A stretch of DNA of 64,000 nt from a virus (taxonomy: Duplodnaviria > Caudoviricetes), in the IMG/VR virus record IMGVR_UViG_3300021959_007005. One strand, given 5' to 3'. The translations under genes were made by a program, and so were the position numbers. Position 1 is the first letter of the stretch. Every line of letters begins with the position of its first letter. The notes beneath the pieces are model-generated. The model was not told where the DNA came from and made no database searches. It worked only from the letters and a program-made list of their open reading frames with translations. Below, one piece after another: positions 15,538-31,852 of this stretch.

Positions 15538-15553
15538 TAAATAATGCTATAAT
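15526..15553 (+). promoter_or_regulatory. sigma70-type promoter overlapping the 3' end of the oxygenase gene
   Basis: TTGACA-N16-TATAAT with TG extension. Confidence 0.65.
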
Positions 15554-16790: not shown

Positions 16791-17095
16791 TGCATTGGGT
16801 AGTATGGTCATACGAAGAGTATAACAGATACCATTTTGAATATCGCCAGCAAGATATTCAAAATGCGTATTCTGAGAGTATGAAAGTTAAAGTTTTAGAG
16901 AGGTTTCTAAAATCTGATCTTGCAGATTTTTATGTGGACATGGGAATACCGTTAACAGTTGAAGAGCGTGTTACATTAGGATCAGATCCAAAAAAACTAT
17001 TGTTTGAAGTGATAGCACACACTATTACTGAAGAACAGACTAATCGAACGAGAGAAAAACGTATAACGGATAAATTAATTAATGCGTATAATTGA
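16787..17095 (+). CDS. Hypothetical protein
   Basis: ATGA overlap. Confidence 0.6.
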   Translation: MMHWVVWSYEEYNRYHFEYRQQDIQNAYSESMKVKVLERFLKSDLADFYVDMGIPLTVEERVTLGSDPKKLLFEVIAHTITEEQTNRTREKRITDKLINAYN

Positions 17096-17360
17096 ACAAC
17101 AATTTAGTTTAAGTGATGATGATCTAGGACTACTCGCTGGTACTAAAATTTTAGAGGCAATGCTTAAACAACGATTAATTATAGAATTTGATGAAACACC
17201 AAATATTGAAGAAATTGATTTTGCAGGATGTACTGGATTTTATCATGCAAGAGTATTAGGTAAAAAAAGATACCAATTTTGGTTTGAAAAAAAACAAGAT
17301 TATGATTGTTTTAGAGAAAATATGATAGCATATAAATTGTCCAATTCAATCGAATCCTAG
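17082..17360 (+). CDS. Hypothetical protein
   Basis: Overlapping ORF in the operon. Confidence 0.65.
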   Translation: MRIIEQQFSLSDDDLGLLAGTKILEAMLKQRLIIEFDETPNIEEIDFAGCTGFYHARVLGKKRYQFWFEKKQDYDCFRENMIAYKLSNSIES

Positions 17361-17364
17361 ATGG

Positions 17365-17371
17365 ATAAATA
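17365..17371 (+). promoter_or_regulatory. T4-like late promoter ATAAATA
   Basis: Intergenic, upstream of an RBS and the ATG at 17406. Confidence 0.55.
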
Positions 17372-17405
17372 ACTACGTATATAACTTATAAGGAATATAA
17401 AAAAA

Positions 17406-17657
17406 ATGAATGACGAAGTTCAAACAGATAACAATAAGCAAGAAGCTGAAGTGCCAACACCAGGTGATCAACCGTCTACGGAAAATGTAACATTGGGTGT
17501 TGGAGATCTTCAAAATGCAATTCAAATAATTGATATTGCAATGACCAGAGGTGCATTCCGTGCTAATGAAGCAGCGCAAATTGGTACAGTATTTGATAAA
17601 CTCACAAAGTTTGTTGCAAGTGTACAAAATAGCATGAATGCTGATGATAACACTTAA
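17406..17657 (+). CDS. Hypothetical phage protein
   Basis: AAGGA RBS. Confidence 0.75.
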   Translation: MNDEVQTDNNKQEAEVPTPGDQPSTENVTLGVGDLQNAIQIIDIAMTRGAFRANEAAQIGTVFDKLTKFVASVQNSMNADDNT

Positions 17658-17669
17658 AGGAGAGTTATA

Positions 17670-18320
17670 ATGGCGAATAAAAAACATATTGGAAAAGTCA
17701 AGAACACAGGACTAAATTGTGTTGTTGTATTTAGAGCAATTTATGACGAGCGTGGGAATATCCAAGACGATACACACTGCTTGGTTCTTGAAACTGACAG
17801 ATTGCCAGACATGGAACATGACGATATTGTTCGTGTATGTGAAAGCATAAACGGGCAGGAAGCAAAAGAATTCTATGAAATTGCTTCACGCCAACAGTTT
17901 AGTGACGGTAGTCCAATGTTACAAAAATTACACAAAATGGGTTGGCTTAAAAAACATTCCACTGATAACATTTTAATGACACCAAATAGTAGTACTAGTG
18001 TTCTACTAAGTGAAGTTAACGAAATTATTAAAAAAAGTGCTAGTGGTATGTCGCCAAACGATATTAAAAATAGTATGGTTGATGACACAGACAGTGCGCC
18101 AAGATCACAAACTAGTCTAAATACACAACCTAGTGGTGAAGCAGTTCCTTCAAATGAAGGAGTACTTGACGATAGTGCGATTGCAAAAAGTATGTTAACA
18201 CAAGCAGAAACATTCCTGTCAGAAGCAGCAAGACTCAAAGAAGAAGCATTTACTATGGATCCAAGTTTAAAACCCAAGCGAGGACGCAAGCCGAAGGCTG
18301 TAGTTGATGCCAGTTCATAA
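17670..18320 (+). CDS. Hypothetical phage protein
   Basis: AGGAG RBS; basic C-terminal KPKRGRKPK. Confidence 0.8.
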   Translation: MANKKHIGKVKNTGLNCVVVFRAIYDERGNIQDDTHCLVLETDRLPDMEHDDIVRVCESINGQEAKEFYEIASRQQFSDGSPMLQKLHKMGWLKKHSTDNILMTPNSSTSVLLSEVNEIIKKSASGMSPNDIKNSMVDDTDSAPRSQTSLNTQPSGEAVPSNEGVLDDSAIAKSMLTQAETFLSEAARLKEEAFTMDPSLKPKRGRKPKAVVDASS

Positions 18321-18642
18321 AAGAGACAGAAACTTTCAAAATATTGTTCGTGATTTAAGTATTAGTAGTGTTCCAGCAGATTACATTCAATCGCTTAGTC
18401 TGATTACTATAGATGGAGATAAGATCACATTTCAAGGAGAAGATATTAGTTTAAATATTGAATCTGATAATCAAACTGACGTAGTTAGTCTTCTAATTGC
18501 TATGGTTGAAGAAAATGGTGATATTTCAGATGAAATAGCAGATGTTGAAATTATTATTGATTATAAAAAACTTGAAACCGATATTGCAGATCTTACCAAT
18601 AAATTATTAAAGGCAAATAAAAATGACAGTAAAACTAGTTAG
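18304..18642 (+). CDS. Acidic hypothetical protein
   Basis: Overlaps both neighbours. Confidence 0.7.
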   Translation: MMPVHKRDRNFQNIVRDLSISSVPADYIQSLSLITIDGDKITFQGEDISLNIESDNQTDVVSLLIAMVEENGDISDEIADVEIIIDYKKLETDIADLTNKLLKANKNDSKTS

Positions 18643-19288
18643 CTATTCAAAAGCTACAGAAGACTTTGCAGCAGAAGGTCTATCAGATCTCCAAGAGCTT
18701 ATTGCATTTTGTGCAAAAGTATCAAACCCTTCGGCGCAGATTAATACTGAAACAAGTGAACGACTGATTAGATATCTAATTAAACACCAACATTGGTCAC
18801 CATTAGAGATGGTTAATGCTACACTTGAAATCAACACTACCAGAGACATTGCACACCAAATTGTGCGACATCGAAGTTTTGCATTTCAAGAGTTCAGTCA
18901 ACGCTACGCTAATCCAGCAGAGTTTGGTGAAATGTTTGTCACCAGAGAAGCACGCCTGCAGGACACTAAGAATAGACAAAACAGTGTAGAGATCGATAGT
19001 GACGAAGATATTCACTATGCTTGGGCTGATAAACAACAAGAAGTGATCGACAAAGCTCGAGAAGTATATGACTGGGCGATTGCCGCCGGTATTGCAAAAG
19101 AACAGGCAAGGGTCGTGTTGCCCGAAGGAAATACCAAGACAAGATTATATATGAATGGAACCATCCGCAGTTGGGTACATTATATTGACTTACGTGGTGC
19201 AAATGGTACACAAAAAGAACACATGGATATCGCTCATGCATGTGCTAAAGTTATTGCTGATATCTTTCCGCTTATGAACGAACTATAA
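18623..19288 (+). CDS. thyX: Flavin-dependent thymidylate synthase
   Basis: HWSPLE and the ThyX motif RHRSFAFQEFSQRY, plus ARVVLP. Confidence 0.97.
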   Translation: MTVKLVSYSKATEDFAAEGLSDLQELIAFCAKVSNPSAQINTETSERLIRYLIKHQHWSPLEMVNATLEINTTRDIAHQIVRHRSFAFQEFSQRYANPAEFGEMFVTREARLQDTKNRQNSVEIDSDEDIHYAWADKQQEVIDKAREVYDWAIAAGIAKEQARVVLPEGNTKTRLYMNGTIRSWVHYIDLRGANGTQKEHMDIAHACAKVIADIFPLMNEL

Positions 19289-19298
19289 AGGAAAAGCT

Positions 19299-19880
19299 GT
19301 GGGCGTTTTTGAAACAGTAGTACTAAGTTACATAATTTATATGGCTGTTGCATTGTATGGAATCACACGTGGTTATCATAGATGCTTTAGTCATCGAGAG
19401 ATTAGTACATCAGTTGTACAAGAAACGCTCATGCTATATTGTGGACTACTGTGTGGGGTTAGAAGCCCGCTAGCATGGGCTGGCTTACATCGTATGCATC
19501 ACGCATATAGTGACACTGAACTAGACCCACACAGTCCCATACTAATGTCCAAATGGCGAGTGTTCTTTAGTGTGTACAAAGTACCAAATATACCAAGAAA
19601 ATTTATCAAAGACTTATTGCGCAATCCACGAGTTATGTTCTTTCACAAACACGGAAAAATTATATGGATTGCACATTTTGTAATCACTTATTTTGTATTT
19701 GGACCCATAGCTATTGCTGTAAACTTTTTAATAATCTTTTACAGTTATATTGGATACGGTGTACTCAACACGTTTGGACATGACAACAATGGTCCAGTTA
19801 ATAGGTTTTGGATTAATTTAATTGCACCGTTTGAGGGCCAACACAGAGATCATCATGAAAGAAGCCATATTAAATCTTAG
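19299..19880 (+). CDS. Membrane acyl-lipid/acyl-CoA desaturase family protein (short)
   Basis: His boxes HRCFSH, HRMHH, HRDHH; DPHSP; TM segments; GTG start after AAGGA. Confidence 0.85.
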   Translation: MGVFETVVLSYIIYMAVALYGITRGYHRCFSHREISTSVVQETLMLYCGLLCGVRSPLAWAGLHRMHHAYSDTELDPHSPILMSKWRVFFSVYKVPNIPRKFIKDLLRNPRVMFFHKHGKIIWIAHFVITYFVFGPIAIAVNFLIIFYSYIGYGVLNTFGHDNNGPVNRFWINLIAPFEGQHRDHHERSHIKS

Positions 19881-20604
19881 CACTGCAATACGCACACCAG
19901 TATTACCAGAAGTAAAAGATACAATAAAACATATACCAATAGACTACGACGGTGTTGTAAAATACAGCACCAATATTTGTGAGTGGCTCAAGCCAGTAAT
20001 TGATCTCAGTAATTATCATGTGTATCCAAGAAATGGTATTACGGAAGGGTTAGACTGGTGGTACAACCAAGAATCCAGAAGTGTATACATGGATAACGGC
20101 GATTACCAATGGATAAATCCTAGGGGTAATATGTACGATGAAAGTGTAAAGTACCAAAGCATACCCAGTAGTATTGACGGAAACTGGAGAGCAACTACAG
20201 GCGAAATACTTGACCTTGCATATGTTGGCAGTACAAGTATACAAAAGATTGATCACGATGCAGATATAGTTTTTTACAGTTTGAGCAAAAGTTTTGGTGT
20301 ACGCAACATCAGAACTGGATGGATATTTACACGTATGCCAGATGCGAAACTAGAAGCACTTACTCACAGTGCAAAATATTACAACTACTATGCTCACAGT
20401 GTTGCAGAAAATATCATAAGTAACTATGACATAGACTATGTTCACAGAAGATTACACAGTCAACAAGTAGATGTATGCAAGAAACTTGATATTATAGCCA
20501 GTGACAGTGTGTGGCTTGCTACCAGCACACATGATGATTATAGTAAATTTAGACGTAACGGAAATGTAGCAAGAGTCTGTTTAGCAGGAGTATATGAATT
20601 ATGA
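19855..20604 (+). CDS. Compact PLP-dependent (fold type I) aminotransferase/decarboxylase-like protein
   Basis: NGITEG, LDLAY, and the Schiff-base motif SLSKSFG...RTGW. Confidence 0.7.
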   Translation: MKEAILNLSTAIRTPVLPEVKDTIKHIPIDYDGVVKYSTNICEWLKPVIDLSNYHVYPRNGITEGLDWWYNQESRSVYMDNGDYQWINPRGNMYDESVKYQSIPSSIDGNWRATTGEILDLAYVGSTSIQKIDHDADIVFYSLSKSFGVRNIRTGWIFTRMPDAKLEALTHSAKYYNYYAHSVAENIISNYDIDYVHRRLHSQQVDVCKKLDIIASDSVWLATSTHDDYSKFRRNGNVARVCLAGVYEL

Positions 20605-21212
20605 GAAAACACCAATTGCCAAGTATGGCTAATTTAAACTTAGATATTGATTTAAATAAATTGCAAGGAGAAATGATTAGACTTGCTGAAAAGTTTGTAG
20701 ATGTACGCACTGCGAATCCAATGTTGTGTGATAATCACATGGAACTTGTTGATAGTGTATACGATAACTTTGAACAAATTAATCTAACAACACCTAGTGA
20801 AATATTACCTTACGAAGCAAGTATTAAAGAACGTATCAGGCGCAGAGAAGAACACTTATACAATATTCCTACACCAGAATACAAAGGCAGTTACTTTGAA
20901 GAAATAGTAACACAACTTAAAGCACCTGCAAGTCGTGTGCGTATTACAAAACTAGCACCAGGAAAAACTATTCCGTTTCACGTAGACTATGATGTGAACT
21001 ATGCTGTTAGATGCATTGTTCCTATTTACGGAGACAAGAATGTTGTTAATTTGTTTAGGCGTGACAGGGAATTAGAAGCATATAATTTAGAAAACGGCAA
21101 TGCATATTTTCTAAACATAGGATATCCACATGCTGTTGTTAACATGAGTAAACATGCTAGAATTGCGCTGATGTTTAGTTTGGATGGTACAGATGATCTG
21201 GAAGCTCTGTGA
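20601..21212 (+). CDS. 2OG-Fe(II) oxygenase, Asp/Asn beta-hydroxylase-like
   Basis: RVRITKLAPG..IPFHVD, NIGYPHAVVN, RIALMF. Confidence 0.8.
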   Translation: MRKHQLPSMANLNLDIDLNKLQGEMIRLAEKFVDVRTANPMLCDNHMELVDSVYDNFEQINLTTPSEILPYEASIKERIRRREEHLYNIPTPEYKGSYFEEIVTQLKAPASRVRITKLAPGKTIPFHVDYDVNYAVRCIVPIYGDKNVVNLFRRDRELEAYNLENGNAYFLNIGYPHAVVNMSKHARIALMFSLDGTDDLEAL

Positions 21213-21675
21213 AATAGATCCATATATAGCTGACATCGAGGATCTGTTTTCTAAAAATGCCGATCACAAACATGCACAGAATTATAGTAAGTATCCGTTG
21301 TTTCAGCACACTGTATTTGCTCGTATGGGATGGGATCAAGGGCGTATGGTTTACTACAGTGCAGCCGTAGAGCGTCCAGAGTATAACGGAAGTATAAGAA
21401 TAATTTGCAGACATACTAGAGATAGAGAATACAACTTTGGAGGATGGCGGGCTGATTTAAAGCGTGGACTAGAAACATTAGACAAGCTAACCCTTCGTGC
21501 CAAAGACCTGGGATATACTGATATATGGGTAAGCAGAGAAGAATCACCCGAGCTACTACACTACTTTGCTGAACATAGTAAATACTCATGGAATGTAACG
21601 CACCAACCTATGCCTGGAAGCGAAAACTGGAATACAGGAGTACAACATCAATATGTCTTACGAATACAAACTTAA
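21184..21675 (+). CDS. Possible GNAT-fold acyltransferase
   Basis: The pattern RIICRH ... AKDLGYTDIWVSRE suggests GNAT motifs A/B; weak. Confidence 0.45.
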   Translation: MVQMIWKLCEIDPYIADIEDLFSKNADHKHAQNYSKYPLFQHTVFARMGWDQGRMVYYSAAVERPEYNGSIRIICRHTRDREYNFGGWRADLKRGLETLDKLTLRAKDLGYTDIWVSREESPELLHYFAEHSKYSWNVTHQPMPGSENWNTGVQHQYVLRIQT

Positions 21676-22405
21676 ACTAATACTACTAGCAAATCATCTA
21701 GCACTAGTACTTGGCTTACTATATGCTGACTGGACATGGCTTGCTTTAAGTTTTGTAGGTTGGATATTATTTGGTAAAGTAGGAGGTGAAATTGCACTAC
21801 ATAGATATCTATGTCATAACAGTTTTAAAACAGGGTGGATTAGACATCGTTTGCTGATAGCTCTAAGTGTATTCAATTGTTTTGGATCTCCTGTGGCTTG
21901 GTGCGGCATACATCGTAAACATCATGCTAAAAGTGAAGGACCAGATGATCCACACGGCGGTCAATCAGGTTGGCGTATATGGAGTACATTTTGGGAACCA
22001 TTTACAATCGAAAGAAGATATGTAGTTGACCTTGTACGTGACCCTACTATCAAACTAGTACATAAACATTATCTAAAAATACTTTTAACTAGCTATGCAG
22101 TGGTAGCACTTATTGATTGGCGTATTGCGGTATTTTTGATCAGCGTTCCTGCTACACTAACATTTCACAGTGCTGGACTAGTAAATGTGTTTTGTCACAA
22201 GTGGGGATACAGACACTACGATACACCAGACCATAGCACAAACAACACATGGGTTAACTTGTTAACACTTGGTAGTGGATTACATAACACACATCATGCA
22301 AAGCCAAAGGCGTGGGATAATCGTGTTAAATGGTGGGAAATAGATTTACCTGCTATAATCATAAAATATTTGTTAATCAATGACTCAAAAACTCAAACTA
22401 CTTAA
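21653..22405 (+). CDS. Delta9-type membrane desaturase
   Basis: HRYLCH, WCGIHRKHH, DDPH, VNVFCHKWG, GSGLHNTHH, WWEID. Confidence 0.92.
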   Translation: MSYEYKLKLILLANHLALVLGLLYADWTWLALSFVGWILFGKVGGEIALHRYLCHNSFKTGWIRHRLLIALSVFNCFGSPVAWCGIHRKHHAKSEGPDDPHGGQSGWRIWSTFWEPFTIERRYVVDLVRDPTIKLVHKHYLKILLTSYAVVALIDWRIAVFLISVPATLTFHSAGLVNVFCHKWGYRHYDTPDHSTNNTWVNLLTLGSGLHNTHHAKPKAWDNRVKWWEIDLPAIIIKYLLINDSKTQTT

Positions 22406-22892
22406 TCAAATAGCTGAAAAATACAACTACAGCCTTAGTCACTTTTTAGTGCCTACAACTCAACGACAGGGATTACAAGGAGTGGGTAGATTCAGTGACG
22501 ACAATATTTCTCCGGATACATTAATAGCTATTATAGGTGGCGTCATAGTAGATGAGCCAGATCAAATGATATGCATGCCAATTGGTAATAAATTATATTT
22601 ACATCAAGTACACTCATTGTTTAGAGCAACAACTAATCACAGTTGTGAACCAAACTGCCGCATACGTGGATTTAATGAACTTGTTAGTTTTATAGACATC
22701 AGTCCAGGCGAAGAACTTACAATTGATTATGGCACAGTTAGTGTTGGTGACGGAAAAACTATTATTGATAAGTGTACGTGTGGTAGTAAATACTGTAGAG
22801 CCACAATACGTACAGATGATTATAAACAATTGCCTAAAGTATTACTTGCTGCTTATCCAAGATATATGAGAGACAAAAATGTGGATGATTGA
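22380..22892 (+). CDS. SET-domain methyltransferase with post-SET Cys cluster
   Basis: NHSCEPN, DISPGEELTIDY, CTCGSKYCR. Confidence 0.88.
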   Translation: MTQKLKLLNQIAEKYNYSLSHFLVPTTQRQGLQGVGRFSDDNISPDTLIAIIGGVIVDEPDQMICMPIGNKLYLHQVHSLFRATTNHSCEPNCRIRGFNELVSFIDISPGEELTIDYGTVSVGDGKTIIDKCTCGSKYCRATIRTDDYKQLPKVLLAAYPRYMRDKNVDD

Positions 22893-23457
22893 TTTTGAAC
22901 ATATAGGTGATCATGTAATACATGTGTTTGATTACAAAGATTACAATCAACAACAACTACTAGACGAAGCGTATAGTAGACAGTACGAGCCTTTTGTTGT
23001 GCCAATGGATGACGAAAACAGTGATCCAAATTGGTTTGAGAAAGACAGTGACGTGCAGATGAATAATTGGACACAAGCTAGATTTTTTCAAGAGCAAAAA
23101 GACGGCAGTGATCATTTAATTAACTATCCTGAAACAAAAAGGGTAACTAAATACTTTGCTAGTATAATACAAACCAATGATATTAGACCCAGGTATTATA
23201 AACTAGAAGCAAACACCAGCGTTCCTGAACATGTAGATCACAATACCAAATGTGGTGTAAATATCATTTTAAATGACAATGCAGGTCCAGTAGAGTTTGT
23301 TGGTGTTGGCTTGTTTGATTATCGTGTTGCACTGTTGAACACCAGTGAATTACATTGTGTACCTGCACATCCACAAGAAAGAATACTATTAAAATTAAGC
23401 ATAATGGACGTAGACTATGACACTGCTAAAAAGAGGATTAAACAAAATGTATCATGA
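22879..23457 (+). CDS. Putative 2OG-Fe(II) oxygenase
   Basis: VPEHVD, LLNTSELHCV, RILLKLS. Confidence 0.7.
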   Translation: MWMIDFEHIGDHVIHVFDYKDYNQQQLLDEAYSRQYEPFVVPMDDENSDPNWFEKDSDVQMNNWTQARFFQEQKDGSDHLINYPETKRVTKYFASIIQTNDIRPRYYKLEANTSVPEHVDHNTKCGVNIILNDNAGPVEFVGVGLFDYRVALLNTSELHCVPAHPQERILLKLSIMDVDYDTAKKRIKQNVS

Positions 23458-24085
23458 ACATGCTGACCCTATTAACTTTAAAATATGCGAGTCAATGCCA
23501 GTTGAATGGCATAATAAACTAAATGAAATATATGACAGATGTACTACACATATACTAGAATTTTCGTTCCATGCCAACCATGGAGACTTTGTTTGTGATC
23601 AAATATGGTGTGAAACACAACAAGATCAGCAATGGATTATTGATACTATACTTCCATACTATGGCATAGACTATGAAAATGTTGCTGAACTAGACTACAG
23701 TAATGCAGTAAGCAGTGATAGAAGCGGAAGTTTTACTGAAGGGTTTGCGCCTCCTTATCCAAAAAACAGCATCAACTTTACACGTTTTGTAGCAGGTAAA
23801 GCTGCTATTATGCAACACAATGCTGGTGTGGATCATGTATTATGCAAGCTCAATGTACCAGTTAAGAACATTGAAGCAGGAACATGTCGTTGGATTGACA
23901 CACAAGAAGGTTGGAATTACAAAGATAACACTGCACTATTACTAAACGTGCAAGCGGATCACACTGTGGACGGTTTAGAGGACCTAAAAGAAGATCGGGC
24001 ATTCCTTAGTATTGCGCTTAAAACAACTTTTGCAGAAAGTATAGCAGATGATAAAGTCTTACGATCTATACACAAACAAAAATAA
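23447..24085 (+). CDS. Putative 2OG-Fe(II)/cupin oxygenase (divergent)
   Basis: KLNVPV, LLNVQADHTVDG, RAFLSI parallel the neighbouring paralogs, but the HxD motif is atypical. Confidence 0.55.
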   Translation: MYHEHADPINFKICESMPVEWHNKLNEIYDRCTTHILEFSFHANHGDFVCDQIWCETQQDQQWIIDTILPYYGIDYENVAELDYSNAVSSDRSGSFTEGFAPPYPKNSINFTRFVAGKAAIMQHNAGVDHVLCKLNVPVKNIEAGTCRWIDTQEGWNYKDNTALLLNVQADHTVDGLEDLKEDRAFLSIALKTTFAESIADDKVLRSIHKQK

Positions 24086-24551
24086 ATTGTGGGACATATA
24101 TCGTAGGTGTACTCGCAGTGAAGATTACTATAATTTAAACGTAGCAAGTACCACAAATGTTTTTATTGACAATCCTGAGGATTGTGAGTATATAGAACAA
24201 AATATTGTTGAGCCATTGGGTATTGATATACAGTGGTTAAACAATCAATATGACGACAGTGTAGGATATAACTTTAATGTTGTCAAGCCCACAGGCTTTG
24301 TAAAGCCTCACAGAGACGTAAACAGTACTAAAGTAAATATTTTATTAAACCAAAAAACACTTGCACCATTTTTGTTTGTGGAAACACAACAAAAATACTA
24401 TTACGAACACCCAGTATTACTGGATGTGAGTCAACTACACACTGTTGATAATTGTGCTAGCATAACTAAAGATAGAGTAACACTGCAATTATTTTTAACA
24501 AAACCATATGATGAATGTGAAAGGATGATAAATGAAAATAGAAGATATTAA
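24048..24551 (+). CDS. Putative 2OG-Fe(II) oxygenase
   Basis: VKPHRD, LLDVSQLHTVDN, RVTLQL. Confidence 0.7.
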   Translation: MIKSYDLYTNKNKLWDIYRRCTRSEDYYNLNVASTTNVFIDNPEDCEYIEQNIVEPLGIDIQWLNNQYDDSVGYNFNVVKPTGFVKPHRDVNSTKVNILLNQKTLAPFLFVETQQKYYYEHPVLLDVSQLHTVDNCASITKDRVTLQLFLTKPYDECERMINENRRY

Positions 24552-25509
24552 AAGTAGTAGCGGATATACCGTAGCTGCAAGAGTACTAACACCATATAAA
24601 GATATGAAGGAACAAGACTTTATTGATCTTGTACGTGAGTATGGTACTGTGGTGTGGAAAAAAGACACAGCTACGGTAGACGAATATATTGATTTTCAGA
24701 TGCGAGTAGGTTATCATCAAGCAGCAGAAATCTGGTGTAATGACGACAAGTATCCACAAATTTATCGTGTTACCAATCTTAAAGTAAAAGACGAACACGA
24801 ATCAGAAGGTTTGTTTGGACACGGAGAACTAGACTGGCACTGTAATATATTGTTTACACCTGATAGTGAGGAAATGGTGGGCTTACGGGCAGTTGAAATA
24901 CCCAAAGGAAGTCAAACAATTATGGCCAACAGTATTCCTTTTTGGAATAATCTAAGTGAAGAAAAGCGTGAATTATATGACACACTGCATTTGAGTATCA
25001 CAAATAAAATGGAAGACACGTATGAAAATCGTCTAGCACACTATGTACTACCTACTGCAGAGCTCAAAGACTTTGACAAAAAACGTGCAAGCAGAGCTAT
25101 ACAAAGAAGTTTAAACTATGATCAACCTGAAGACAAATTTGCTGAGCCACGTTTTGAAAAAACGAACACTCTTAAAATGATCAGTAGACATCCACTGGGT
25201 ACCAAAGGTGTATACTTTCCACATTTAAATCTAAGTTATATATGTGACAAAGATGGAAACAAACTGGAAAACCATCGTGAAATTTATGAAGAAATTAAAG
25301 CAGAATATATTGATAGTGATCAATATCATTATGCACATGAATGGGAAGTTGGAGACATTTGTTTTATGGAACAGCTAACAGGCGTTCATAGACGTAATAA
25401 TGTATGGTTAGAAAAAGGATTAGATCCAGAAACTGCCAAACGTGAATTACAACGTACTAGCTTCTGGTACAAAACACCTTATAGACTGCACACAGAACGA
25501 TGCATCTAA
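24532..25509 (+). CDS. TauD/TfdA family dioxygenase
   Basis: GELDWHCN, GSQTIMAN, HPLG, HEWEVGD...GVHRR, RELQR. Confidence 0.82.
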   Translation: MKIEDIKSSSGYTVAARVLTPYKDMKEQDFIDLVREYGTVVWKKDTATVDEYIDFQMRVGYHQAAEIWCNDDKYPQIYRVTNLKVKDEHESEGLFGHGELDWHCNILFTPDSEEMVGLRAVEIPKGSQTIMANSIPFWNNLSEEKRELYDTLHLSITNKMEDTYENRLAHYVLPTAELKDFDKKRASRAIQRSLNYDQPEDKFAEPRFEKTNTLKMISRHPLGTKGVYFPHLNLSYICDKDGNKLENHREIYEEIKAEYIDSDQYHYAHEWEVGDICFMEQLTGVHRRNNVWLEKGLDPETAKRELQRTSFWYKTPYRLHTERCI

Positions 25510-26543
25510 GTAGCACTTTTTGTAGTAAGGCATGGAGTGATGTAAACATAGACTTTGCTCGACGAAGTGTTAGACATTGTTGTAAAAGTGTGAATGAATA
25601 TATGCCCGAGCAACTTGATACTGAATTTTTCAATGCAAGTCCTGGTATATTAGAACGCCGTGAAGCATTGCAAGCAGGCATAGAACATACAAATTGCAAA
25701 CACTGCTGGAGCAGTTATAGAAAGTCAGGCGGAGCCTACAGAGATGTTTACAACACAGGCAAGATTGAACCTATAAAATTTGTAGAAGTGAAACTAGACA
25801 ACTTGTGTGATATGACATGTCAGTATTGTGATGCTCGTAGTAGTCATAAAATTGCACAAAAACTAGGAATTAAACAATCAGTACTACAAGCTGATGACCA
25901 AGATTACGCTGTGTTTTTAGATTGGTTGCAAACACTTAAAGATCCTTATACACTAAGTTTTCTTGGCGGTGAAGTTACATACAGCAAAAACTTTGTAAAG
26001 TTTGCAGAACTTATGTTGCAAAAATTATATAAGCAAGACTTATTCATTTCTATTATGACAAATGCAAATACCCTACCAAAACAACAACAGAAATTTTTTG
26101 AGCTATTAGATCGATTTCCTAACAACTGGCGTGTTATTGTTGTAATTAGTAATGAAAGCACTGGCAACGTTAGTGAAACTGTTAGAGAAGGATTAAGTTG
26201 GCCAAGATTTGAAACTAATGTACGTAATTACTTTGCAAGAACACAACTAGAGTTTATAGGATTGAGTCCAACACTCAGCACACTTACTGTGGATCATTTC
26301 TCAGACTATATGTACTGGGTGGGTGAACTTGCACGTGAATACAATATACAACTTTATATCACAGGAAGCAGTGTAGATCATAGTGGTCCATTAAGTTTAC
26401 AATACTGCGACAACACAAAACAATCTTTGGTAAACAACTGGCGCAAACTGTTCAATCAGTATGCAGATGTCATTATGAATTTAGATGACTGTTTAATTTG
26501 GTTGGAAAAAGTACGAAAAGAAATTACAAGCAATGCTGTTTGA
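25500..26543 (+). CDS. Radical SAM protein with an N-terminal twitch domain
   Basis: FCSKAW..HCC, CKHC, NLCDMTCQYC, GGE. Confidence 0.85.
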   Translation: MHLSSTFCSKAWSDVNIDFARRSVRHCCKSVNEYMPEQLDTEFFNASPGILERREALQAGIEHTNCKHCWSSYRKSGGAYRDVYNTGKIEPIKFVEVKLDNLCDMTCQYCDARSSHKIAQKLGIKQSVLQADDQDYAVFLDWLQTLKDPYTLSFLGGEVTYSKNFVKFAELMLQKLYKQDLFISIMTNANTLPKQQQKFFELLDRFPNNWRVIVVISNESTGNVSETVREGLSWPRFETNVRNYFARTQLEFIGLSPTLSTLTVDHFSDYMYWVGELAREYNIQLYITGSSVDHSGPLSLQYCDNTKQSLVNNWRKLFNQYADVIMNLDDCLIWLEKVRKEITSNAV

Positions 26544-27213
26544 GTACATCAAATGCATCACTATGTACAGATAAAAAGAATTGATATGTACTTGAATCGC
26601 CTTGACTGCGAGCTGTGTGTATTAAGCTAGTGTCTACAATATACATCCTGCCTGGTTCAATATCTCCATGCCAATCTACCATGTCAGGTTCCATACTACT
26701 AACTGTTCCTGGTGTAGGAGCTCTGCGAAATTCTCTATCAAATTGAAACTTTACATTATCTGGATCTGTAGTTCCCCATAGTCTCAGTATTGGGCTAGGA
26801 AACCATGTATCGCTATGTGGATAAAAGAATGATTCACTATCCCATCTCAGTATACAACTACGACACCAATAATCATCAAAACATTTAAGAGGATCGAATA
26901 CACTGTGTTCAAACACTGGAGTTTTTTGTGTAAAGTCTCTGTCAAACACCCAGTCTTCTTCTTCTAATGGTTCTAGCCATTCATCTAATGGATAACACAC
27001 AGGCTCTGGATTGTTGTACATACTGCCGTTTTGATTTACCAATGGTAATCCGTATCTAGGAAAGTGTTTTTTCTTTTCACCCCAACTGCGAAATGCATAT
27101 TGGTGCTGTTGCATAAGACTTTCAAACTTATCGGGATCGATTACTATGTCTGTCGCTACAACAGGAGAAGTGTGCAATTGTAGATATTTGTCTAGTTCTA
27201 TCATAGCAGACAA
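26524..27213 (-). CDS. Putative 2OG-Fe(II) oxygenase
   Basis: FYPHSD, IVDTSLIHTA. Confidence 0.65.
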   Translation of the reverse strand: MSAMIELDKYLQLHTSPVVATDIVIDPDKFESLMQQHQYAFRSWGEKKKHFPRYGLPLVNQNGSMYNNPEPVCYPLDEWLEPLEEEDWVFDRDFTQKTPVFEHSVFDPLKCFDDYWCRSCILRWDSESFFYPHSDTWFPSPILRLWGTTDPDNVKFQFDREFRRAPTPGTVSSMEPDMVDWHGDIEPGRMYIVDTSLIHTARSQGDSSTYQFFLSVHSDAFDVLKQHCL

Positions 27214-27755
27214 GCAACCATGTGTATGCGATCTTCGTTACTGCCATTAAATGCTGTATGATAGCATTTTTTAGTTTCAGTCCAATACCATTTGTTTTTT
27301 TCTAAATGCTCTACTTCTTTTTCAATTACCATGTAGCACCCAAACTGTGTTTTGATAGGATAGTGTATTCTGTTGTTGTAGTCATAATGCCAGCTCATTG
27401 CATATCTAGGATTTGTACGCATCAGTCTTACTCTGCCTACAGTATAATCATTAGTAAGAGCAGTATATAATTGTTCAAACTGTGTGCCTGCAAACACACT
27501 GCACAGTTTAGTAAAATCTTGTTCACGTAGTGCAGTTTCACGTTTAGGTACATGCACTCCATTTTCTGTGTCACTGGCACGGGCCCAATCTAAATCCAAA
27601 CTACCTACTCCTGCATAAGGACTGTCATTGTCGGGTGTAGCATTGATACAGATTTGATTCATGTGTTGCCAACTTAAAACGTTGTTGTGCAACATCTGTT
27701 CTAGTTCTTGATGAACATCTATACTAGGAAGATCTTTTAACTGTTTAAAATGCAT
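27201..27755 (-). CDS. 2OG-Fe(II) oxygenase, Asp/Asn beta-hydroxylase-like
   Basis: RVRLM, SWHYD, RIHYPI, YHTAFNG..DRIHMV. Confidence 0.78.
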   Translation of the reverse strand: MHFKQLKDLPSIDVHQELEQMLHNNVLSWQHMNQICINATPDNDSPYAGVGSLDLDWARASDTENGVHVPKRETALREQDFTKLCSVFAGTQFEQLYTALTNDYTVGRVRLMRTNPRYAMSWHYDYNNRIHYPIKTQFGCYMVIEKEVEHLEKNKWYWTETKKCYHTAFNGSNEDRIHMVACLL

Positions 27756-28375
27756 CAGTAATGTTTTATTTTTATGGGTTCTTTTGGAATAGAATAGAAA
27801 ATTTTATCGTTGTCAGCATGATGTATGCGTCTATTCAAGTTAGGATTTTTATGACCCACCCCCATAAGCAATAATATCTTGCGGTCTGTTTGTAGTATCT
27901 CTTTTATTGGTTCTGGATCTAAGCATTGACAGCACCCTGTACTATATCCTAGCATTGTGCTAGTAAGATTTAAGTATCCACTTGCGATACCTAATGCAAT
28001 ATTGGCATCTCTTTGGATTATTGTCTGGTCACTGTTTTCATCTAGTTCATTTTTATCAAGCACTCTAGAACTTGACTCAGCACTTGTAAACACAAATAAA
28101 ATATTTGCTAGTACTTGGCTGTTTGTAATTATTTCCTGTTCTTCATTGAACATTCTGAATCCAAAAGTGTAATTGTGTATCTGTTCTATGATGTTTCTAT
28201 CTTGTACAACACTCAAACCATAAAATGCATTATTTTGTTTGCTAGGGCATTGCGTTGCTGCATGAATCATTAGATCAATATCAGTTTGAGGTATAGGTTG
28301 TGATAAGTCCCAGTTACGTTGACAATGTTGACTTTTAATTACGCTTTTATGTATATTTGTGTGTATGTCTAACAT
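27755..28375 (-). CDS. Nitroreductase/FMN oxidoreductase family protein
   Basis: CQRNW, AATQCPSKQN, IALGIASGYLNLTSTMLGYSTGCC, LLMGVG. Confidence 0.78.
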   Translation of the reverse strand: MLDIHTNIHKSVIKSQHCQRNWDLSQPIPQTDIDLMIHAATQCPSKQNNAFYGLSVVQDRNIIEQIHNYTFGFRMFNEEQEIITNSQVLANILFVFTSAESSSRVLDKNELDENSDQTIIQRDANIALGIASGYLNLTSTMLGYSTGCCQCLDPEPIKEILQTDRKILLLMGVGHKNPNLNRRIHHADNDKIFYSIPKEPIKIKHY

Positions 28376-28384
28376 GGCGTATTC

Positions 28385-28663
28385 CTAAAAAAGTTCGTTT
28401 GTGGTTTCAATGATAGTAAAGTTTGTATTGTCTACACCGTCTGCCATTTTTGTACCTAGTAGCGTAAAATATTCATTGCATTCTGTTTCGTTATTAAAAG
28501 TTAGCCACGTAATAATATTGTCAGCGTCATCTGGATCTGCATTACTTCCTGAATCTAATATTTTTCCATCGGCTACCCAGTCGTCAAAGACAGCAGTTGC
28601 TTCCGTGTTTAAAATATTTTCTGCTGAATCGACTTGAATTTTTAAAGTTCTTTTGTATGCCAT
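28385..28663 (-). CDS. Small acidic Asn/Asp/Thr-rich protein, late-expressed (possibly virion-associated)
   Basis: GGAGGTG RBS and ATAAATA upstream. Confidence 0.75.
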   Translation of the reverse strand: MAYKRTLKIQVDSAENILNTEATAVFDDWVADGKILDSGSNADPDDADNIITWLTFNNETECNEYFTLLGTKMADGVDNTNFTIIETTNELF

Positions 28664-28687
28664 TTAATTACACCTCCACTATATTGA

Positions 28688-28694
28688 TATTTAT
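28688..28694 (-). promoter_or_regulatory. T4-like late promoter ATAAATA
   Basis: Overlaps the stop codon of the upstream rSAM gene, 24 nt before the ATG at 28663. Confidence 0.5.
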
Positions 28695-29803
28695 GCCTTT
28701 CGTTTTGGAATCTTACTATCAGCACTACTAACACAATTGTCACTAATACAAACTCTAGGCTTATCAAATAATTTAAATCCTGTTTCAATATTACCAAGAG
28801 GGACGTCTGCACAACTATAACTGCGTTTGATACTTCCGTCAGGCTCTCTGATAATGATTCCACTGTATCCTGCATTACAACTCCATCCCTTAAACTCATT
28901 GAAGTTGAAAGCATTAAACCGTTCTGCTTGGTCCATGTACCATTTCTTGCCTGTAGAGTCTGTAAACTCTACTTGCATGTGCCATGGCACACTCTTGTCA
29001 TTCTCACCTATTGCGTAAGGCGGCAATTCGAAACTTGGCCGTGGACGATCCGCCCATTTGCGTTTCGATTCAGTATACGCCATTTGAGGCATACCGTTCC
29101 ACAATCGCTGTAGCATTTCATCTGTGTAACCGTCCACGACTCTAGACGCCGTTGGATCTGATTGTGGCTTGAGGGTAACGTTGATTCCTTGCTCGTGGAA
29201 GAACAATGCGTTTTCCCAGTCCCTCTCAAACCAGTTTGGAACCATAACCATATTGATTGTAACTTGAACATCATGCTCCTGACACAAGATTAGTTTATCT
29301 GCAAAGTCTTGTAACTTCTCAGTAGTATTTAAATGTTCTGTGTGTAAACTAGCGGTTATACTAGCTCTATGGAAGGGTTTTACACGTTCTACATAATCCT
29401 CATGCCACTTCATATTGCGTGACATATTAGTTGTCATATGAACACTAGTATAATTTGTGTTTAATATATCGCTGGCAAGGTGTTGTAGGATGTCAAGGTA
29501 GCCGGGATGAAAGGTAGGTTCTCCCCCAGACAGGGAGAAGTGGAAACTATTGAAGCCGTTAGCTCTTGCTTGGGATTTGATTTCATCCACTGTATGCAAG
29601 CAGAGCTCAGTAGGTCGGTGGTCTTTACGGTCGGAACGGGCGTAAGGCCAACAGTACGAGCATTTGTAGTTGCAAAATCTTCCGAGCAGCCAACTAACAG
29701 TAAACAAGTCGCGATAAAGCAAAGTCCTTTGCCCAACGCTGACGATATCGTCAAAGGGTATTTTAGTAAAATCATATTCACTCCATTTTAAGTCTTCTGT
29801 CAT
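28691..29803 (-). CDS. Radical SAM protein (C-terminal twitch/SPASM remnant)
   Basis: RFCNYKCSYC, SGGEPT, TTN, and CNAG...G..KRSYSC. Start moved to MTEDLKW. Confidence 0.88.
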   Translation of the reverse strand: MTEDLKWSEYDFTKIPFDDIVSVGQRTLLYRDLFTVSWLLGRFCNYKCSYCWPYARSDRKDHRPTELCLHTVDEIKSQARANGFNSFHFSLSGGEPTFHPGYLDILQHLASDILNTNYTSVHMTTNMSRNMKWHEDYVERVKPFHRASITASLHTEHLNTTEKLQDFADKLILCQEHDVQVTINMVMVPNWFERDWENALFFHEQGINVTLKPQSDPTASRVVDGYTDEMLQRLWNGMPQMAYTESKRKWADRPRPSFELPPYAIGENDKSVPWHMQVEFTDSTGKKWYMDQAERFNAFNFNEFKGWSCNAGYSGIIIREPDGSIKRSYSCADVPLGNIETGFKLFDKPRVCISDNCVSSADSKIPKRKA

Positions 29804-30354
29804 AATTTTGCAAATAACTCCAAAAATCGTTCTGCGCCATTTGCGACATTTTTTGACCATTCTTGGGCAGCATTTTCATCTGCCATATCACTAATGTATT
29901 TAAAACTTCTAAAAGGTATATTATATTCTTGTGCAACATATGCCAGTGCATAACCTTCCATGTCTACACAGTCAATGTCTGCTTCCACAAACCATTTGTC
30001 TGGACCCATAACAAAACTATCACCAGTACCACACCTTAATTGCATAACTGGACTCGCTGTACCAATATCACTGAGTATAGGATCGCTAAACGGTACTACA
30101 CCCCTATCAACCATAGGCATTGCCATCATATCACGCTGTACAAATGTACCTATCTCACGCATGCCTTTGACCATAGGATTAAGCCCACCTGCTGTGCCGT
30201 AATTGACAATTAGATTTGGCTTAGTGCTTTTACATAGTGCTTGTGCCAGTCGTGTTGCAGCTTGTACTTTACCAACACCTGTGTAAACTACTGTGGTATT
30301 TTTAGGAGGATTTGGAAGTTCTTCTTCCAATGCTACAACTAATAATATATTCAT
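29800..30354 (-). CDS. mtnN: 5'-methylthioadenosine/S-adenosylhomocysteine nucleosidase (Pfs-like)
   Basis: VVALEEE, TGVGKVQAA, NYGTAGG, TGDSF, VDMEGYA, KYISDMAD. Confidence 0.88.
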   Translation of the reverse strand: MNILLVVALEEELPNPPKNTTVVYTGVGKVQAATRLAQALCKSTKPNLIVNYGTAGGLNPMVKGMREIGTFVQRDMMAMPMVDRGVVPFSDPILSDIGTASPVMQLRCGTGDSFVMGPDKWFVEADIDCVDMEGYALAYVAQEYNIPFRSFKYISDMADENAAQEWSKNVANGAERFLELFAKL

Positions 30355-31310
30355 AATTCTTCCTTGATAAATTTATCTTGTTTCATTTGTTTGCATACTT
30401 GCATACATCGTGGAACAGGATTGTCGCTATCCCAACTCTGTTGAATATTTTGCCATACAGTACTATGTATTGCATCTTTTATGCTAACATTTTGTAAATT
30501 AATTGTATCAATATAATTGTTGTCCAACAACAGTTGTTCAAATTGATCTTTCACTTCACCTGTTACACTATATTCCATCATCTTGCTATTTAAATGACAA
30601 CAAGGAATAACATTGCCCATATGATTTATGAATATACGTTTTTGATTACCGTACTTACAACTAATATACGGTATTTCTGGCGCATTGTCAATCTTTTCAG
30701 TCTTGGCTGACTTGACTCCGCCAGTTGTGTCTTTTCTGTGACTGATAATAGTTTTAAAACTTTTAAATCCTTCAGTAGTTGCTTTGGCTTTTGCTTCTTC
30801 TAACTGATGTTCATTGTGTTCAAACACAATAAACTGCCAGTTACTTCTACCACCAGCGGCATTGAACGCACGATAGTTTTGTTCTACTTTTGTAAAATTA
30901 CTGCCTTGTCTATATACTTCACTTAGTTCATCACTGCCGTCAATACCCCAAGTAACAGCATGACTAGGCGGTAATATACCAGCTAGTTCAGTCCACCATT
31001 TTGTAGTACGCAAACTGCCATTAGTAGCAATGTTTATGTGAGCATTCCAGTCAGCAAAGTGACGTATAATATCAAAAAACTGTGGGTGTGTTGTAGGTTC
31101 GTCCACACTGCCGCAAAAATTAATAATTTTAATACTAGGAAATTGTCCACGCACAAATCGTTCACGTATAGTATCTATGGTAATGTAGTGTTTATTGAGT
31201 ATTTTATCAGCTTGTTTGCTAATAATTCTAAAACAACCTTTGCATTCTATGTTACAATAACTAGTAAGCTCTATGTCTAGCCATTCTATAGTATCCATGC
31301 TCCACATCAT
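30351..31310 (-). CDS. Radical SAM/SPASM(twitch) protein
   Basis: SYCNIECKGC, TNGS, IFINHMGNVIPCC, C-terminal CxxxC. Confidence 0.88.
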   Translation of the reverse strand: MMWSMDTIEWLDIELTSYCNIECKGCFRIISKQADKILNKHYITIDTIRERFVRGQFPSIKIINFCGSVDEPTTHPQFFDIIRHFADWNAHINIATNGSLRTTKWWTELAGILPPSHAVTWGIDGSDELSEVYRQGSNFTKVEQNYRAFNAAGGRSNWQFIVFEHNEHQLEEAKAKATTEGFKSFKTIISHRKDTTGGVKSAKTEKIDNAPEIPYISCKYGNQKRIFINHMGNVIPCCHLNSKMMEYSVTGEVKDQFEQLLLDNNYIDTINLQNVSIKDAIHSTVWQNIQQSWDSDNPVPRCMQVCKQMKQDKFIKEEL

Positions 31311-31852
31311 TGTCTCTCCTGCATGGGATCAATACTTAAATTGTTTACACAGTATCCTTGTGGCTGATCCAATACCCATTTGATATATTCAGCAGCTACA
31401 TCTGTGTGCATACATACCCTGTCAGGATGCTTATGTTGATTATTGTCGAGTGTTCCAAAACTAATCAGTGTTATCTTAGGACCACTGTGCCAAACTCCTA
31501 TTAGTCCCAGACTATTACAGTAATCAGCTAGCGCACGTTTCTCTGCATTGTACAACCAACTTGTGCCTTTACTAGTTCTGTCTGTTGTACTGCCTACACA
31601 TACAATATGTGCGTCATTGTTGGCTGTTTTACACGCCTTGTATACTAGATCCAGTAGCACAGTTTGATGGAAGCGCCATAGTGCGCTATTGATAATGATT
31701 TGACTGTGTTTAGCAGCTTCTTGTGCAAACCACTCCATATCACTGTTGTCAGTAAGGTTCACACCTGTGCTTCTACTCACAAACTTTGCATTAGGATACA
31801 GTTTGTGTATACTGTGTGCTAGTCCTTGTCTTGAATTGCCTGTTACTATCAT
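31307..31852 (-). CDS. Short-chain dehydrogenase/reductase-like protein
   Basis: IVTG...GLA, IINSA, VGS, catalytic YNAEK. Confidence 0.75.
   Translation of the reverse strand: MIVTGNSRQGLAHSIHKLYPNAKFVSRSTGVNLTDNSDMEWFAQEAAKHSQIIINSALWRFHQTVLLDLVYKACKTANNDAHIVCVGSTTDRTSKGTSWLYNAEKRALADYCNSLGLIGVWHSGPKITLISFGTLDNNQHKHPDRVCMHTDVAAEYIKWVLDQPQGYCVNNLSIDPMQERQ

Follow-up and report, generated by a model that had tools for sequence, protein, structure and literature searches.

Positions 19299-28375 of a 64,000-nucleotide stretch of the viral record IMGVR_UViG_3300021959_007005 (Caudoviricetes) carry 14 genes, numbered here g1 to g14 (Table 1). The whole stretch is referred to below as the window; it corresponds to positions 110821-174820, minus strand, of a 197,947-bp IMG/VR viral contig with a CheckV completeness of 55%. 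A first-pass annotation had described the 14 genes as an operon resembling a biosynthetic gene cluster, made up mostly of oxidative and group-transfer enzymes. All 14 genes are real, overlap tightly and can be assigned to enzyme families, in keeping with that description. Comparison with related phages places the boundaries elsewhere. The region is a four-gene core (g1-g4, 19299-21675), encoding a membrane desaturase, a pyridoxal phosphate (PLP) enzyme, an AspH-type Fe/2-oxoglutarate (2OG) oxygenase and a protein of predicted GNAT fold, set inside a hypervariable array, and is not one 14-gene cluster.

The eleven open reading frames (ORFs) of the plus strand span 19299-26543, as first annotated, and overlap their neighbours by 4-41 nt, while three minus-strand ORFs span 26524-28375. 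The two groups had been said to meet head to head. They meet tail to tail: g11 and g12 share 20 nt at their 3' ends (26524-26543), stop codons included, and the two blocks are thus convergent. The families first named for the genes were recovered, with the addition of an omitted radical S-adenosylmethionine (SAM) gene at 25500-26543. The edges of the block at 19299 and 28375 are arbitrary. The upstream limit of the plus-strand unit lies beyond the block, as no intergenic gap longer than 45 nt occurs between 15582 and 26543, and the minus-strand unit runs on to about 37965; 19299-28375 is not a self-contained block.

Table 1. Genes and other features of the array and its surroundings (window coordinates).
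Feature	Coordinates	Strand	Description	Basis
g1	19299-19880	+	Minimal membrane desaturase, delta-9 type, 193 aa; core cassette	Pfam FA_desaturase, NCBIfam DesA family
g2	19852-20604	+	Compact (~250 aa) fold-type-I, class-I PLP enzyme (predicted); core cassette	Pfam Aminotran_1_2, AlphaFold model
g3	20601-21212	+	AspH-type Fe/2OG oxygenase, 203 aa; most conserved core cassette member	Pfam Asp_Arg_Hydrox
g4	21184-21675	+	Small GNAT-fold acyltransferase (predicted), 163 aa; core cassette	AlphaFold model, Foldseek, VIA-align
g5	21653-22405	+	Second delta-9-type desaturase, 250 aa, of a lineage other than g1; variable part	Pfam FA_desaturase
g6	22380-22892	+	SET-domain methyltransferase with post-SET Cys cluster; variable part	Pfam SET
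g7	22879-23457	+	AspH-type cupin paralogue, HxD...H...R; variable part	Iterated profile E 1.3e-18
g8	23417-24085	+	AspH-type cupin paralogue, HxA...H...R; variable part	Iterated profile E 1.7e-13
g9	24048-24551	+	AspH-type cupin paralogue, HxD...H...R; variable part	Iterated profile E 2.8e-16
g10	24532-25509	+	TauD/TfdA-family protein, WHxN for WHxD; frequent fifth cassette companion	Pfam TauD
g11	25500-26543	+	Radical-SAM enzyme, best match N_Twi_rSAM; variable part	CxxxCxxC motif, NCBIfam
g12	26524-27204	-	AspH-type cupin paralogue, HxD...H without canonical Arg	Iterated profile E 6.3e-16
g13	27201-27755	-	AspH-type Fe/2OG oxygenase, HxD...H...R	Pfam Asp_Arg_Hydrox, 23.9 bits vs 22.6 cut-off
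g14	27755-28375	-	Nitroreductase-family flavoprotein; variable part	Pfam Nitroreductase
Predicted sigma-70-type promoter	15526-15553	+	TTGACA-16 nt-TGnTATAAT	12/12 hexamer matches, extended -10
Upstream part of plus-strand unit	from 15582	+	DUF2201 gene, four small ORFs, thyX	
Rest of minus-strand operon upstream of g14 (context)	28385-37965	-	Five radical-SAM genes, PNP_UDP_1 nucleosidase, SDR-like gene, 92-aa ORF	Pfam (radical-SAM genes)

Conservation of the four-gene core

The gene neighbourhoods of metagenomic homologues were compared among IMG/VR loci, 40 of which were found by a search with the g4 alignment. Twenty-nine loci contain a distinct g4. A desaturase lies within 6 kb in each of these (29/29), g3 has an orthologue in 28 of them and g2 in 25, and every missing g2 or g3 coincides with a flank that is too short. 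The g1-g4 families therefore stand together in all 29 distinct g4-bearing viral loci where the flank suffices. They do so in three gene orders. In the first, g1-g2-g3-g4 are contiguous; in the second, g1 and g4 are adjacent, with g3 and g2 (then a TauD-like gene) inverted 3-9 kb downstream; the third has desaturase-g3-g4 with g2 inverted. Genes 5-14 behave differently from the core: even a relative of the same genus keeps some, lacks some and has replaced some, and the SET protein, the nitroreductase and the cupins other than g3 are sporadic across loci. The first-pass annotation had taken free shuffling of gene content with no conserved core as evidence against a shared pathway; genes 5-14 do shuffle freely, and genes 1-4 form a conserved core.

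A 99%-identical contig repeats the whole block. The same-genus relative (L003/L012) has g1-g10, g12 and g13 in order, without g11, g14 and thyX. Identity along this colinear operon is a mosaic, with g3 at 94%, g10 at 96% and g8 at 93% against g1 at 46%, g2 at 55% and g13 at 53%, which indicates frequent gene-sized recombination inside the island. In L003 the g1 and g2 alleles have been replaced and g3 kept, without any change in order.

The closest cultured relative for these genes is Pelagibacter phage Mosig EXVC030M (MT647606) of the family Kyanoviridae. Its island (Mosig_00072-00082) carries a g3 orthologue (68% identity), homologues of g2 (42%) and g1 (32%), a TauD-like gene, a nitroreductase and a second AspH-type gene, with radical-SAM genes on the opposite strand. 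The order is desaturase, aminotransferase, TauD-like gene, GNAT, g3 orthologue, then tail-fibre genes. This GNAT is of another family (hhalign probability 1.8% against the g4 profile); it is not orthologous to g4 and precedes the g3 orthologue instead of following it. Genes for an FMN reductase, a peroxiredoxin and a methylase are also interposed, the island adjoins the tail fibres, and it is known from annotations alone. Comparable substitutions were found in L011, where a cupin, a g5-type desaturase and a Mosig-type GNAT follow in direct succession, and in L006-L010, where a 28%-identical PLP paralogue lies near a g5-type desaturase. Rearrangement, allele replacement and non-orthologous substitution of the same four families argue for a functional link between them. 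Among the relatives, further cassette companions include an AMP-binding enzyme and weaker matches that resemble short-chain dehydrogenases/reductases (SDRs) and sulfotransferases.

A rather improbable alternative is that no common pathway exists, and that the hypervariable island has collected unrelated auxiliary genes (a desaturase for membrane fluidity, oxygenases, redox enzymes) in which the adjacency of g1-g4 is synteny inherited within one lineage. The free variation of genes 5-14 among same-genus relatives would fit this, as would the flanking AAA, DUF2201, x83 and x216 genes, which are equally syntenic, and a mirror-tree style distance correlation, which gave no discriminating co-evolution signal for g1-g4. 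Hypervariable regions are described in pelagimyophages and cyanomyophages (PMC7029224), and viral delta-9 desaturases are proposed to work alone on host lipids (PMC5776448). Against it, g1-g4 have kept a common neighbourhood through at least three rearrangements and through allele replacement, the combination of families has been rebuilt with non-orthologous GNATs, desaturases and PLP enzymes, and all catalytic residues are strongly constrained.

One occurrence was found in a prokaryotic assembly. A 6.9-kb contig of a freshwater Phycisphaerales metagenome-assembled genome (L055, JBIKJV010000344.1) reads DUF2201-x92-x83-x216-x112...g1-g2-g3-g4. It is probably a mis-binned phage fragment, in which case the cassette is present in lake phages too.

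The core enzymes

The first gene of the core, for a predicted membrane di-iron desaturase, scores slightly below the cut-off of Pfam FA_desaturase (E 1.1e-6, 29.1 bits vs 29.7). An alignment of 50 homologues from related loci contains the three His boxes of the family (HxxxxH, HxxHH, HxxHH) with a ninth His and an Asn; H27, H32, H64, H67, H68, H161, H182, H185 and H186 of g1 are invariant, and N157 occurs in 49/50. Hydrophobic segments of g1 cover residues 1-23 and 119-157, and orthologues occur in 35 loci. The second desaturase of the first-pass list, g5, is 26% identical to g1 and lies above the same cut-off (E 1.9e-14, 54.5 bits); both assignments hold. Neither g1 nor g5 has a tblastn match in cultured cyanophages. 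Orthologues of g5 (67-87% identity) were found in 9 loci, one of them a complete 328-kb phage genome (L008) without g4, in which the g5 neighbourhood holds carbamoyltransferase, UDP-glucose dehydrogenase and radical-SAM genes. There the g5-type desaturase is one ORF downstream of an FNR-like flavoprotein reductase (L008:8597-10732; FAD_binding_6 + NAD_binding_1, then a 221-aa ORF, then the desaturase), and the two may form a phage-supplied electron chain.

Phage-encoded desaturases of this type have been noted before. The cyanophage vFAD proteins are DesC/delta-9 membrane desaturases with three His boxes, and their genes are taken to be auxiliary metabolic genes for lipids (Roitman et al. 2017, PMC5776448). 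The g1 and g5 proteins are likewise delta-9-type membrane desaturases with three His boxes, but g1 is much shorter (its orthologues have 186-212 aa) and seems to have a single hydrophobic segment in its N-terminal part, and both genes are linked to PLP, AspH and GNAT genes whereas vFAD stand alone.

The ORF of g2 opens at TTG 19822, and ATG 19852 is the likely start. Its match to Pfam Aminotran_1_2 (PF00155) is formally below threshold (E 7e-4, 19.2-19.3 bits vs 19.7), and a single-sequence PDB search gave no match. Among 26 aligned homologues G110, D121, S143, S145, K146, R154, R235 and R241 are invariant and N111 is near-invariant, by which the Schiff-base Lys of an SxSK motif, the pyridine-nitrogen Asp, the phosphate Arg and the distal carboxylate-binding Arg are all kept. 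The AlphaFold model (pLDDT 93.7) has 478 Foldseek matches at E<=1e-3, headed by Trp aminotransferase (TAA1), HisC, alliinase, C-S lyases and 1-aminocyclopropane-1-carboxylate (ACC) synthase, a result that assigns it to class I/II aminotransferases of fold type I. On this model, and in agreement with the first-pass call of a PLP enzyme, g2 is predicted to be a real but compact fold-type-I enzyme, about 100 residues shorter than usual at 250 aa. Fold-type-I PLP enzymes with a carboxylate-binding Arg take free amino or keto acids as substrates. Sphingolipid or ceramide synthesis, with g2 in the role of a serine palmitoyltransferase, was considered and rejected, as the closest folds are class-I aminotransferases and C-S lyases with an SxSK...RxG motif; no alpha-oxoamine synthase is among the g2 structural matches listed.

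The AspH-type oxygenase g3 exceeds the Pfam cut-off for Asp_Arg_Hydrox (PF05118; 28.2 bits vs 22.6) and has the HxD...H...R motif, and its single-sequence PDB search returned one chance-level match only. Orthologues 55-94% identical are present in 36 loci. The mean pairwise distance of g3 is 0.22-0.28, and that of the DUF2201 gene in its flank is 0.38.

No Pfam, NCBIfam, PHROG or PDB sequence match was obtained for g4, and its profile gave one chance-level match only against the PDB. Its confident AlphaFold model (pLDDT 92.9) nevertheless pairs with GNATs only, as first annotated: Foldseek gave 219 matches at E<=1e-3, all GNATs among the matches listed, and in a wide VIA-align search against representatives (top Z 11.7) the top 50 are all GNAT-fold chains. 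The modelled structure thereby places g4 in the GNAT fold. The loop that would contact coenzyme A (CoA) has an atypical motif in which F85, G86, R94 and G95 are invariant, and binding of this cofactor is presumed. Homologues form 182 clusters in public metagenomes, and the family is nearly confined to phage sequence. A pattern scan of one genome each of 185,579 prokaryote species found g4 on one contig only, with phage synteny, and tblastn against cultured phages found no match.

Two metagenomic proteins of 352-353 aa (P0121/P0122) have a g4-type GNAT fused to a C-terminal domain with a weak Sulfotransfer_1 match (E 0.0017, below cut-off), and L038 has, among cupins, a 175-aa ORF with a weak Sulfotransfer_2 match (25.1 bits; no single stretch passes). 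An ectoine-like logic of aminotransferase, GNAT and cupin was rejected, since g3 has a full 2OG-oxygenase site and EctA is one of many GNATs at a similar distance.

An expanded family of AspH-type cupins

In addition to a TauD protein, six further 2OG oxygenases had been annotated in the array. Two of them, g3 and g13, belong to PF05118 by Pfam score. The other four (g7, g8, g9 and g12) have no Pfam match above cut-off, with g9 reaching only E 0.11 for Asp_Arg_Hydrox, and are connected to g3 and g13 solely by an iterated profile derived from related phage loci (E 1e-13 to 1e-18). This profile was seeded with g3 and iterated over a set of 1,765 ORFs, drawn from the contig and from some 45 related loci; g13 matches it with E 2.8e-29. 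By BLASTP g7, g8, g9 and g12 show only weak links (g7 with g3 at 1e-3; g8 with g9 at 1e-4 and with g3 at 6e-3), and single-sequence PDB searches with g7 and g12 gave no match. The protein encoded by g12, the last gene of the long minus-strand operon, has viral clusters as its ESM Atlas neighbours, with PF05118 in about half of the members, and these support its ATG start at 27204.

Over the whole 198-kb contig the g3-seeded profile matches exactly six ORFs, g3, g7, g8, g9, g12 and g13 (E 1e-13 to 1e-60). Because all six AspH-type cupins of the contig fall within this 9 kb, their clustering is far from chance. The related loci contain 209 ORFs of the same family, 103 of which have a BLASTP match to any of the six window copies. 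The full HxD-H-R site is found in 158/209, and variant sites comprise 3 HxA, 2 HxG, 6 HxH and 7 HxE. The g8 protein itself is without the acidic ligand; two-His sites of this kind are known from human AspH and from Fe/2OG halogenases. Judged by their sequences, the AspH-type cupins appear as a large, fast-diverging, phage-borne expansion of one family.

Variable enzymes and the minus-strand operon

The SET protein and the nitroreductase of the first-pass list both lie above their Pfam cut-offs. The g6 protein matches SET (PF00856) with E 4.7e-8 and 33.8 bits vs 22.4, and the motifs NHSCxPN and ELTIDY can be read from its translation. Its best PDB sequence match is BurB from Burkholderia (1.6e-5), narrowly above histone lysine methyltransferases (KMT2/NSD SET), and homologues of about 30% identity occur in 6 other loci. 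The g14 protein matches Nitroreductase (PF00881) with 27.2 bits vs 23.5 and has homologues in 3 related loci. A carnitine-like or dimethylsulfoniopropionate-like route through SET, TauD and PLP proteins was set aside, as SET lies outside the conserved core.

For g10 the family named at first pass is confirmed (Pfam TauD, PF02668; E 7.2e-21, 75.7 bits), and a profile of 13 g10 homologues matches TfdA at 4.6e-19 and TauD at 4.5e-15. The HxD...H facial triad expected of such an enzyme is not present. The Asn of the g10 motif (WHCN) aligns with the iron-ligand Asp of TfdA and TauD, as it does in the majority of 15 phage homologues; both the distal His and the 2OG-binding Arg are retained. By homology g10 belongs to the TauD/TfdA family, but canonical dioxygenase chemistry is not assured for g10 itself. 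TauD-like genes adjoin g2 in at least 11 loci. Homologues with WHxN were seen in L036, L046, L048, L050, L038, L041, L035, L051 and L053; in a few others the residue is D or A.

The cluster motif of g11, CDMTCQYC, is evident in its translation. Although the matches are below cut-off for both NCBIfam NF033640 (E 2.7e-39, 135 bits vs 170) and Pfam Radical_SAM (25.1 bits vs 29.5), the predicted membership of the radical-SAM superfamily is secure; the N_Twi_rSAM subfamily is not formally reached.

The three minus-strand genes are the end of a longer operon, the gaps of which are at most 27 nt as far as 31852, the extent checked. An SDR-like protein of 181 aa at 31307-31852 (minus strand) has TGxxxG and YxxxK motifs read by eye and no Pfam match. 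In L006-L010 it co-travels with the radical-SAM gene at 28691-29860 and the 28%-identical PLP paralogue, and the three may be a second recurring module. The PNP_UDP_1 nucleosidase (29800-30354, minus strand) lies amid the radical-SAM genes, and a SAM synthetase is encoded 25 kb upstream (2558-3649, plus strand); the pair is consistent with phage-supplied SAM and removal of 5'-deoxyadenosine. Maturation of a ribosomally synthesized and post-translationally modified peptide was rejected because no precursor gene was found, there being no conserved small ORF in or beside the cassette, where genes overlap throughout. The 92-aa ORF at 28385-28663 is without repeat or leader-core features and is 35% conserved in L003.

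This operon brings in another possibility, that the cassette is part of a neighbouring supercluster for glycan or lipopolysaccharide (LPS) tailoring. In it the aminotransferase and GNAT would make an acetamido sugar, LpxO-like hydroxylases and the desaturase would alter lipid A or a glycolipid anchor, and the radical-SAM array would edit the sugar. LpxO is indeed of the AspH family, the islands of relatives mix in carbamoyltransferase, UDP-glucose dehydrogenase and ArnB-like aminotransferase genes, and pelagimyophage islands are rich in LPS-related genes (PMC7029224). We regard this as distinctly improbable, as g2 resembles amino-acid aminotransferases and C-S lyases with the alpha-carboxylate Arg kept, with no DegT-family sugar aminotransferases among the top structural matches listed. 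The cassette also occurs without adjacent sugar genes (e.g. L020-L022), and the cupins are without a membrane anchor.

Transcription and genomic context

The predicted promoter ahead of the 15582-26543 unit has a sigma-70-type consensus. The T4-type late motif TATAAATA is absent from 9606-55857 and rarer than chance across the window, and a terminator scan gave sites no more numerous than in shuffles. The plus-strand part is probably transcribed from the sigma-70-type promoter together with thyX and AAA/VWA genes. This promoter and the absence of a late motif lead us to propose an early, host-directed function for the plus-strand part. Among cultured phages, 751 encode a homologue of the DUF2201 gene at 15582, and jumbo phages are among the best matches. 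A role in DNA hypermodification, suggested by the position of the cassette behind thyX, was rejected because a membrane desaturase is a misfit and thyX is adjacent only here and in the closest relative.

Upstream of the block, a 2OG-FeII_Oxy_5 oxygenase at 14863-15537 (plus strand) is 51% identical in L002/L004, in which the contig is otherwise 96-100% identical; from its sequence this looks like local allele replacement. There is no psbA gene on the fragment. Megablast of the 9-kb block against cultured phages gave no match, and PHROGs returned nothing useful for its proteins.

Relation to described phage systems

Some parts of this picture are already published, namely tandem dioxygenase arrays in marine T4-like phages, a core AspH of pelagimyophages and viral delta-9 desaturases. 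Synechococcus phage Syn9 has a tandem array of ten dioxygenases for which modification of peptides or secondary metabolites was proposed (Iyer et al. 2010, PMC2938197). As in Syn9, the present array consists of many diverged tandem Fe/2OG dioxygenase genes of a marine myophage mixed with other tailoring enzymes. The Syn9 genes, however, represent classical 2OGFeDO families, one JmjC protein (MINA-type) and tryptophan halogenases, whereas here one AspH-type (PF05118) family has expanded, and the array is anchored by a desaturase-PLP-AspH-GNAT cassette that is not described in PMC2938197. Full-text literature searches found no description of such a cassette. In pelagimyophages an aspartyl/asparaginyl beta-hydroxylase is termed 'core' and a hypervariable host-recognition cluster has been reported (Zaragoza-Solas et al. 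2020, PMC7029224).

A different explanation, protein modification, seems to us unlikely. The cupins would hydroxylate residues such as Asp and Asn in fibre or collar proteins of the phage, or in proteins of the host (e.g. of the translation apparatus), the GNAT would acetylate, the SET protein methylate and the sulfotransferases of relatives sulfate the same targets, and each diverged cupin would serve its own site or protein. The AspH family includes protein and peptide hydroxylases. The Mosig g3 orthologue and GNAT are directly upstream of same-strand tail-fibre genes, g4 is fused to a weakly sulfotransferase-like domain in two metagenomic clusters, and the conservation of g3 exceeds that of its neighbours, which would be expected if its substrate were a macromolecule. 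The AspH of pelagimyophages is listed as a core protein alongside peptide deformylase and ribosomal protein S21 (PMC7029224), and operons of beta-hydroxylase, acetyltransferase and sulfotransferase genes include tail-collar or collagen-like proteins as proposed substrates (PMC2938197). Such a scheme gives no role to the strictly linked PLP enzyme, with its alpha-carboxylate Arg kept, or to the membrane desaturase. Within the window the cassette neither contains nor adjoins a gene for a fibre, a collagen-like protein or a repeat peptide, and the plus-strand unit appears early-promoted, without a late motif.

Possible function of the cassette

We favour, at a probability of roughly 40%, a small-molecule or lipid tailoring module that acts on an amino-acid-derived, N-acylated, hydroxylated compound. 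The presence of a PLP enzyme and a membrane desaturase favours a small-molecule or lipid substrate, and an N-acylated, hydroxylated, amino-acid-derived membrane compound is the best reading in that it accounts for all four core families. Signs of catalytic competence are seen in the sequences, as the desaturase ligands and the Gly/Asp/Lys/Arg set of the aminotransferase are invariant and most cupins keep their site, and support also comes from the non-orthologous rebuilding in Mosig, L011 and L006-L010. The first-pass suggestion of a pathway for a modified lipid or small molecule is upheld in part, by the conservation of the four-gene core.

From the gene families, catalytic residues, folds and co-occurrence observed, we infer a substrate and an order of steps. 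The PLP enzyme would make or convert an amino-acid-derived amine, which the GNAT would N-acylate or N-acetylate. The desaturase and the AspH-type hydroxylase might then alter the acyl chain or the beta-carbon at the membrane, in the manner of OlsC and LpxO. Further decoration could be provided by the variable oxygenases and the methyltransferase, and in relatives by sulfotransferases, SDRs and an adenylating enzyme. The resulting compound would resemble an aminolipid or a lipoamino acid, or else be a remodelled lipid of the host envelope.

A comparable logic is known from bacterial enzymes that tailor aminolipids and lipid A. OlsB is a GNAT-like N-acyltransferase, and OlsC and LpxO are AspH-family 2-hydroxylases of acyl chains, so that here too a GNAT-fold acyltransferase and an AspH-family hydroxylase would meet on an N-acylated amino compound at the membrane. 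The proposed likeness is one of enzyme families, and g4 is far smaller than OlsB. Neither a PLP enzyme nor a PF00487 desaturase is known to take part in the Ols pathway.

Several observations weigh against this interpretation. Unlike LpxO and OlsC, g3 is without a membrane segment. At 151-167 aa the g4 proteins have the size of simple acetyltransferases, and g4 is structurally equidistant from RimI, LasI, FeeM and EctA. Every cassette-bearing locus falls in a single phage lineage whose flanking synteny is conserved, and co-occurrence may therefore partly be inheritance; pairwise-distance matrices correlate no better for g1-g4 among themselves (r 0.3-0.7) than with flanking genes (r 0.25-0.64). 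The promoter at 15526-15553 is a consensus match only, of a kind no commoner here than in shuffled sequence. The Mosig cassette runs directly into tail-fibre genes, and beta-hydroxylases, acetyltransferases and sulfotransferases have been linked elsewhere with tail-collar and collagen-like proteins (PMC2938197).

A more speculative extension of the tailoring module, which we hold to be somewhat doubtful, is that the cassette is a phage-borne pathway complete in itself, by which SAR11-type hosts and other streamlined bacteria of marine and fresh waters would, once infected, make an undescribed lipoamino-acid- or aminolipid-type metabolite that bears hydroxyl groups and, with certain phages, sulfate or methyl groups as well. 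On this view the more than 200 diverged cupins and the H-x-N TauD-like proteins would serve to diversify the compound, so that every phage makes a version of its own.

Significance

The vague call of a 14-gene cluster is narrowed here to a four-gene target, with a related cassette available in a cultured phage-host pair. The enzyme variants are of biochemical interest in their own right, among them a desaturase of 190 aa, an aminotransferase fold of 250 aa and the TauD-like proteins, in which Asn replaces the Asp that binds iron. The cassette is widespread, being conserved in dozens of related ocean and lake phages with a version in cultured Mosig, and phages of this lineage infect some of the ocean's most abundant bacteria. 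If virion proteins were modified instead of a small molecule, the cassette would constitute a new layer of host-range variation. If a lipid or metabolite is made or remodelled, it would represent a common, unrecognised effect of infection on the cell envelope or on dissolved organic chemistry.

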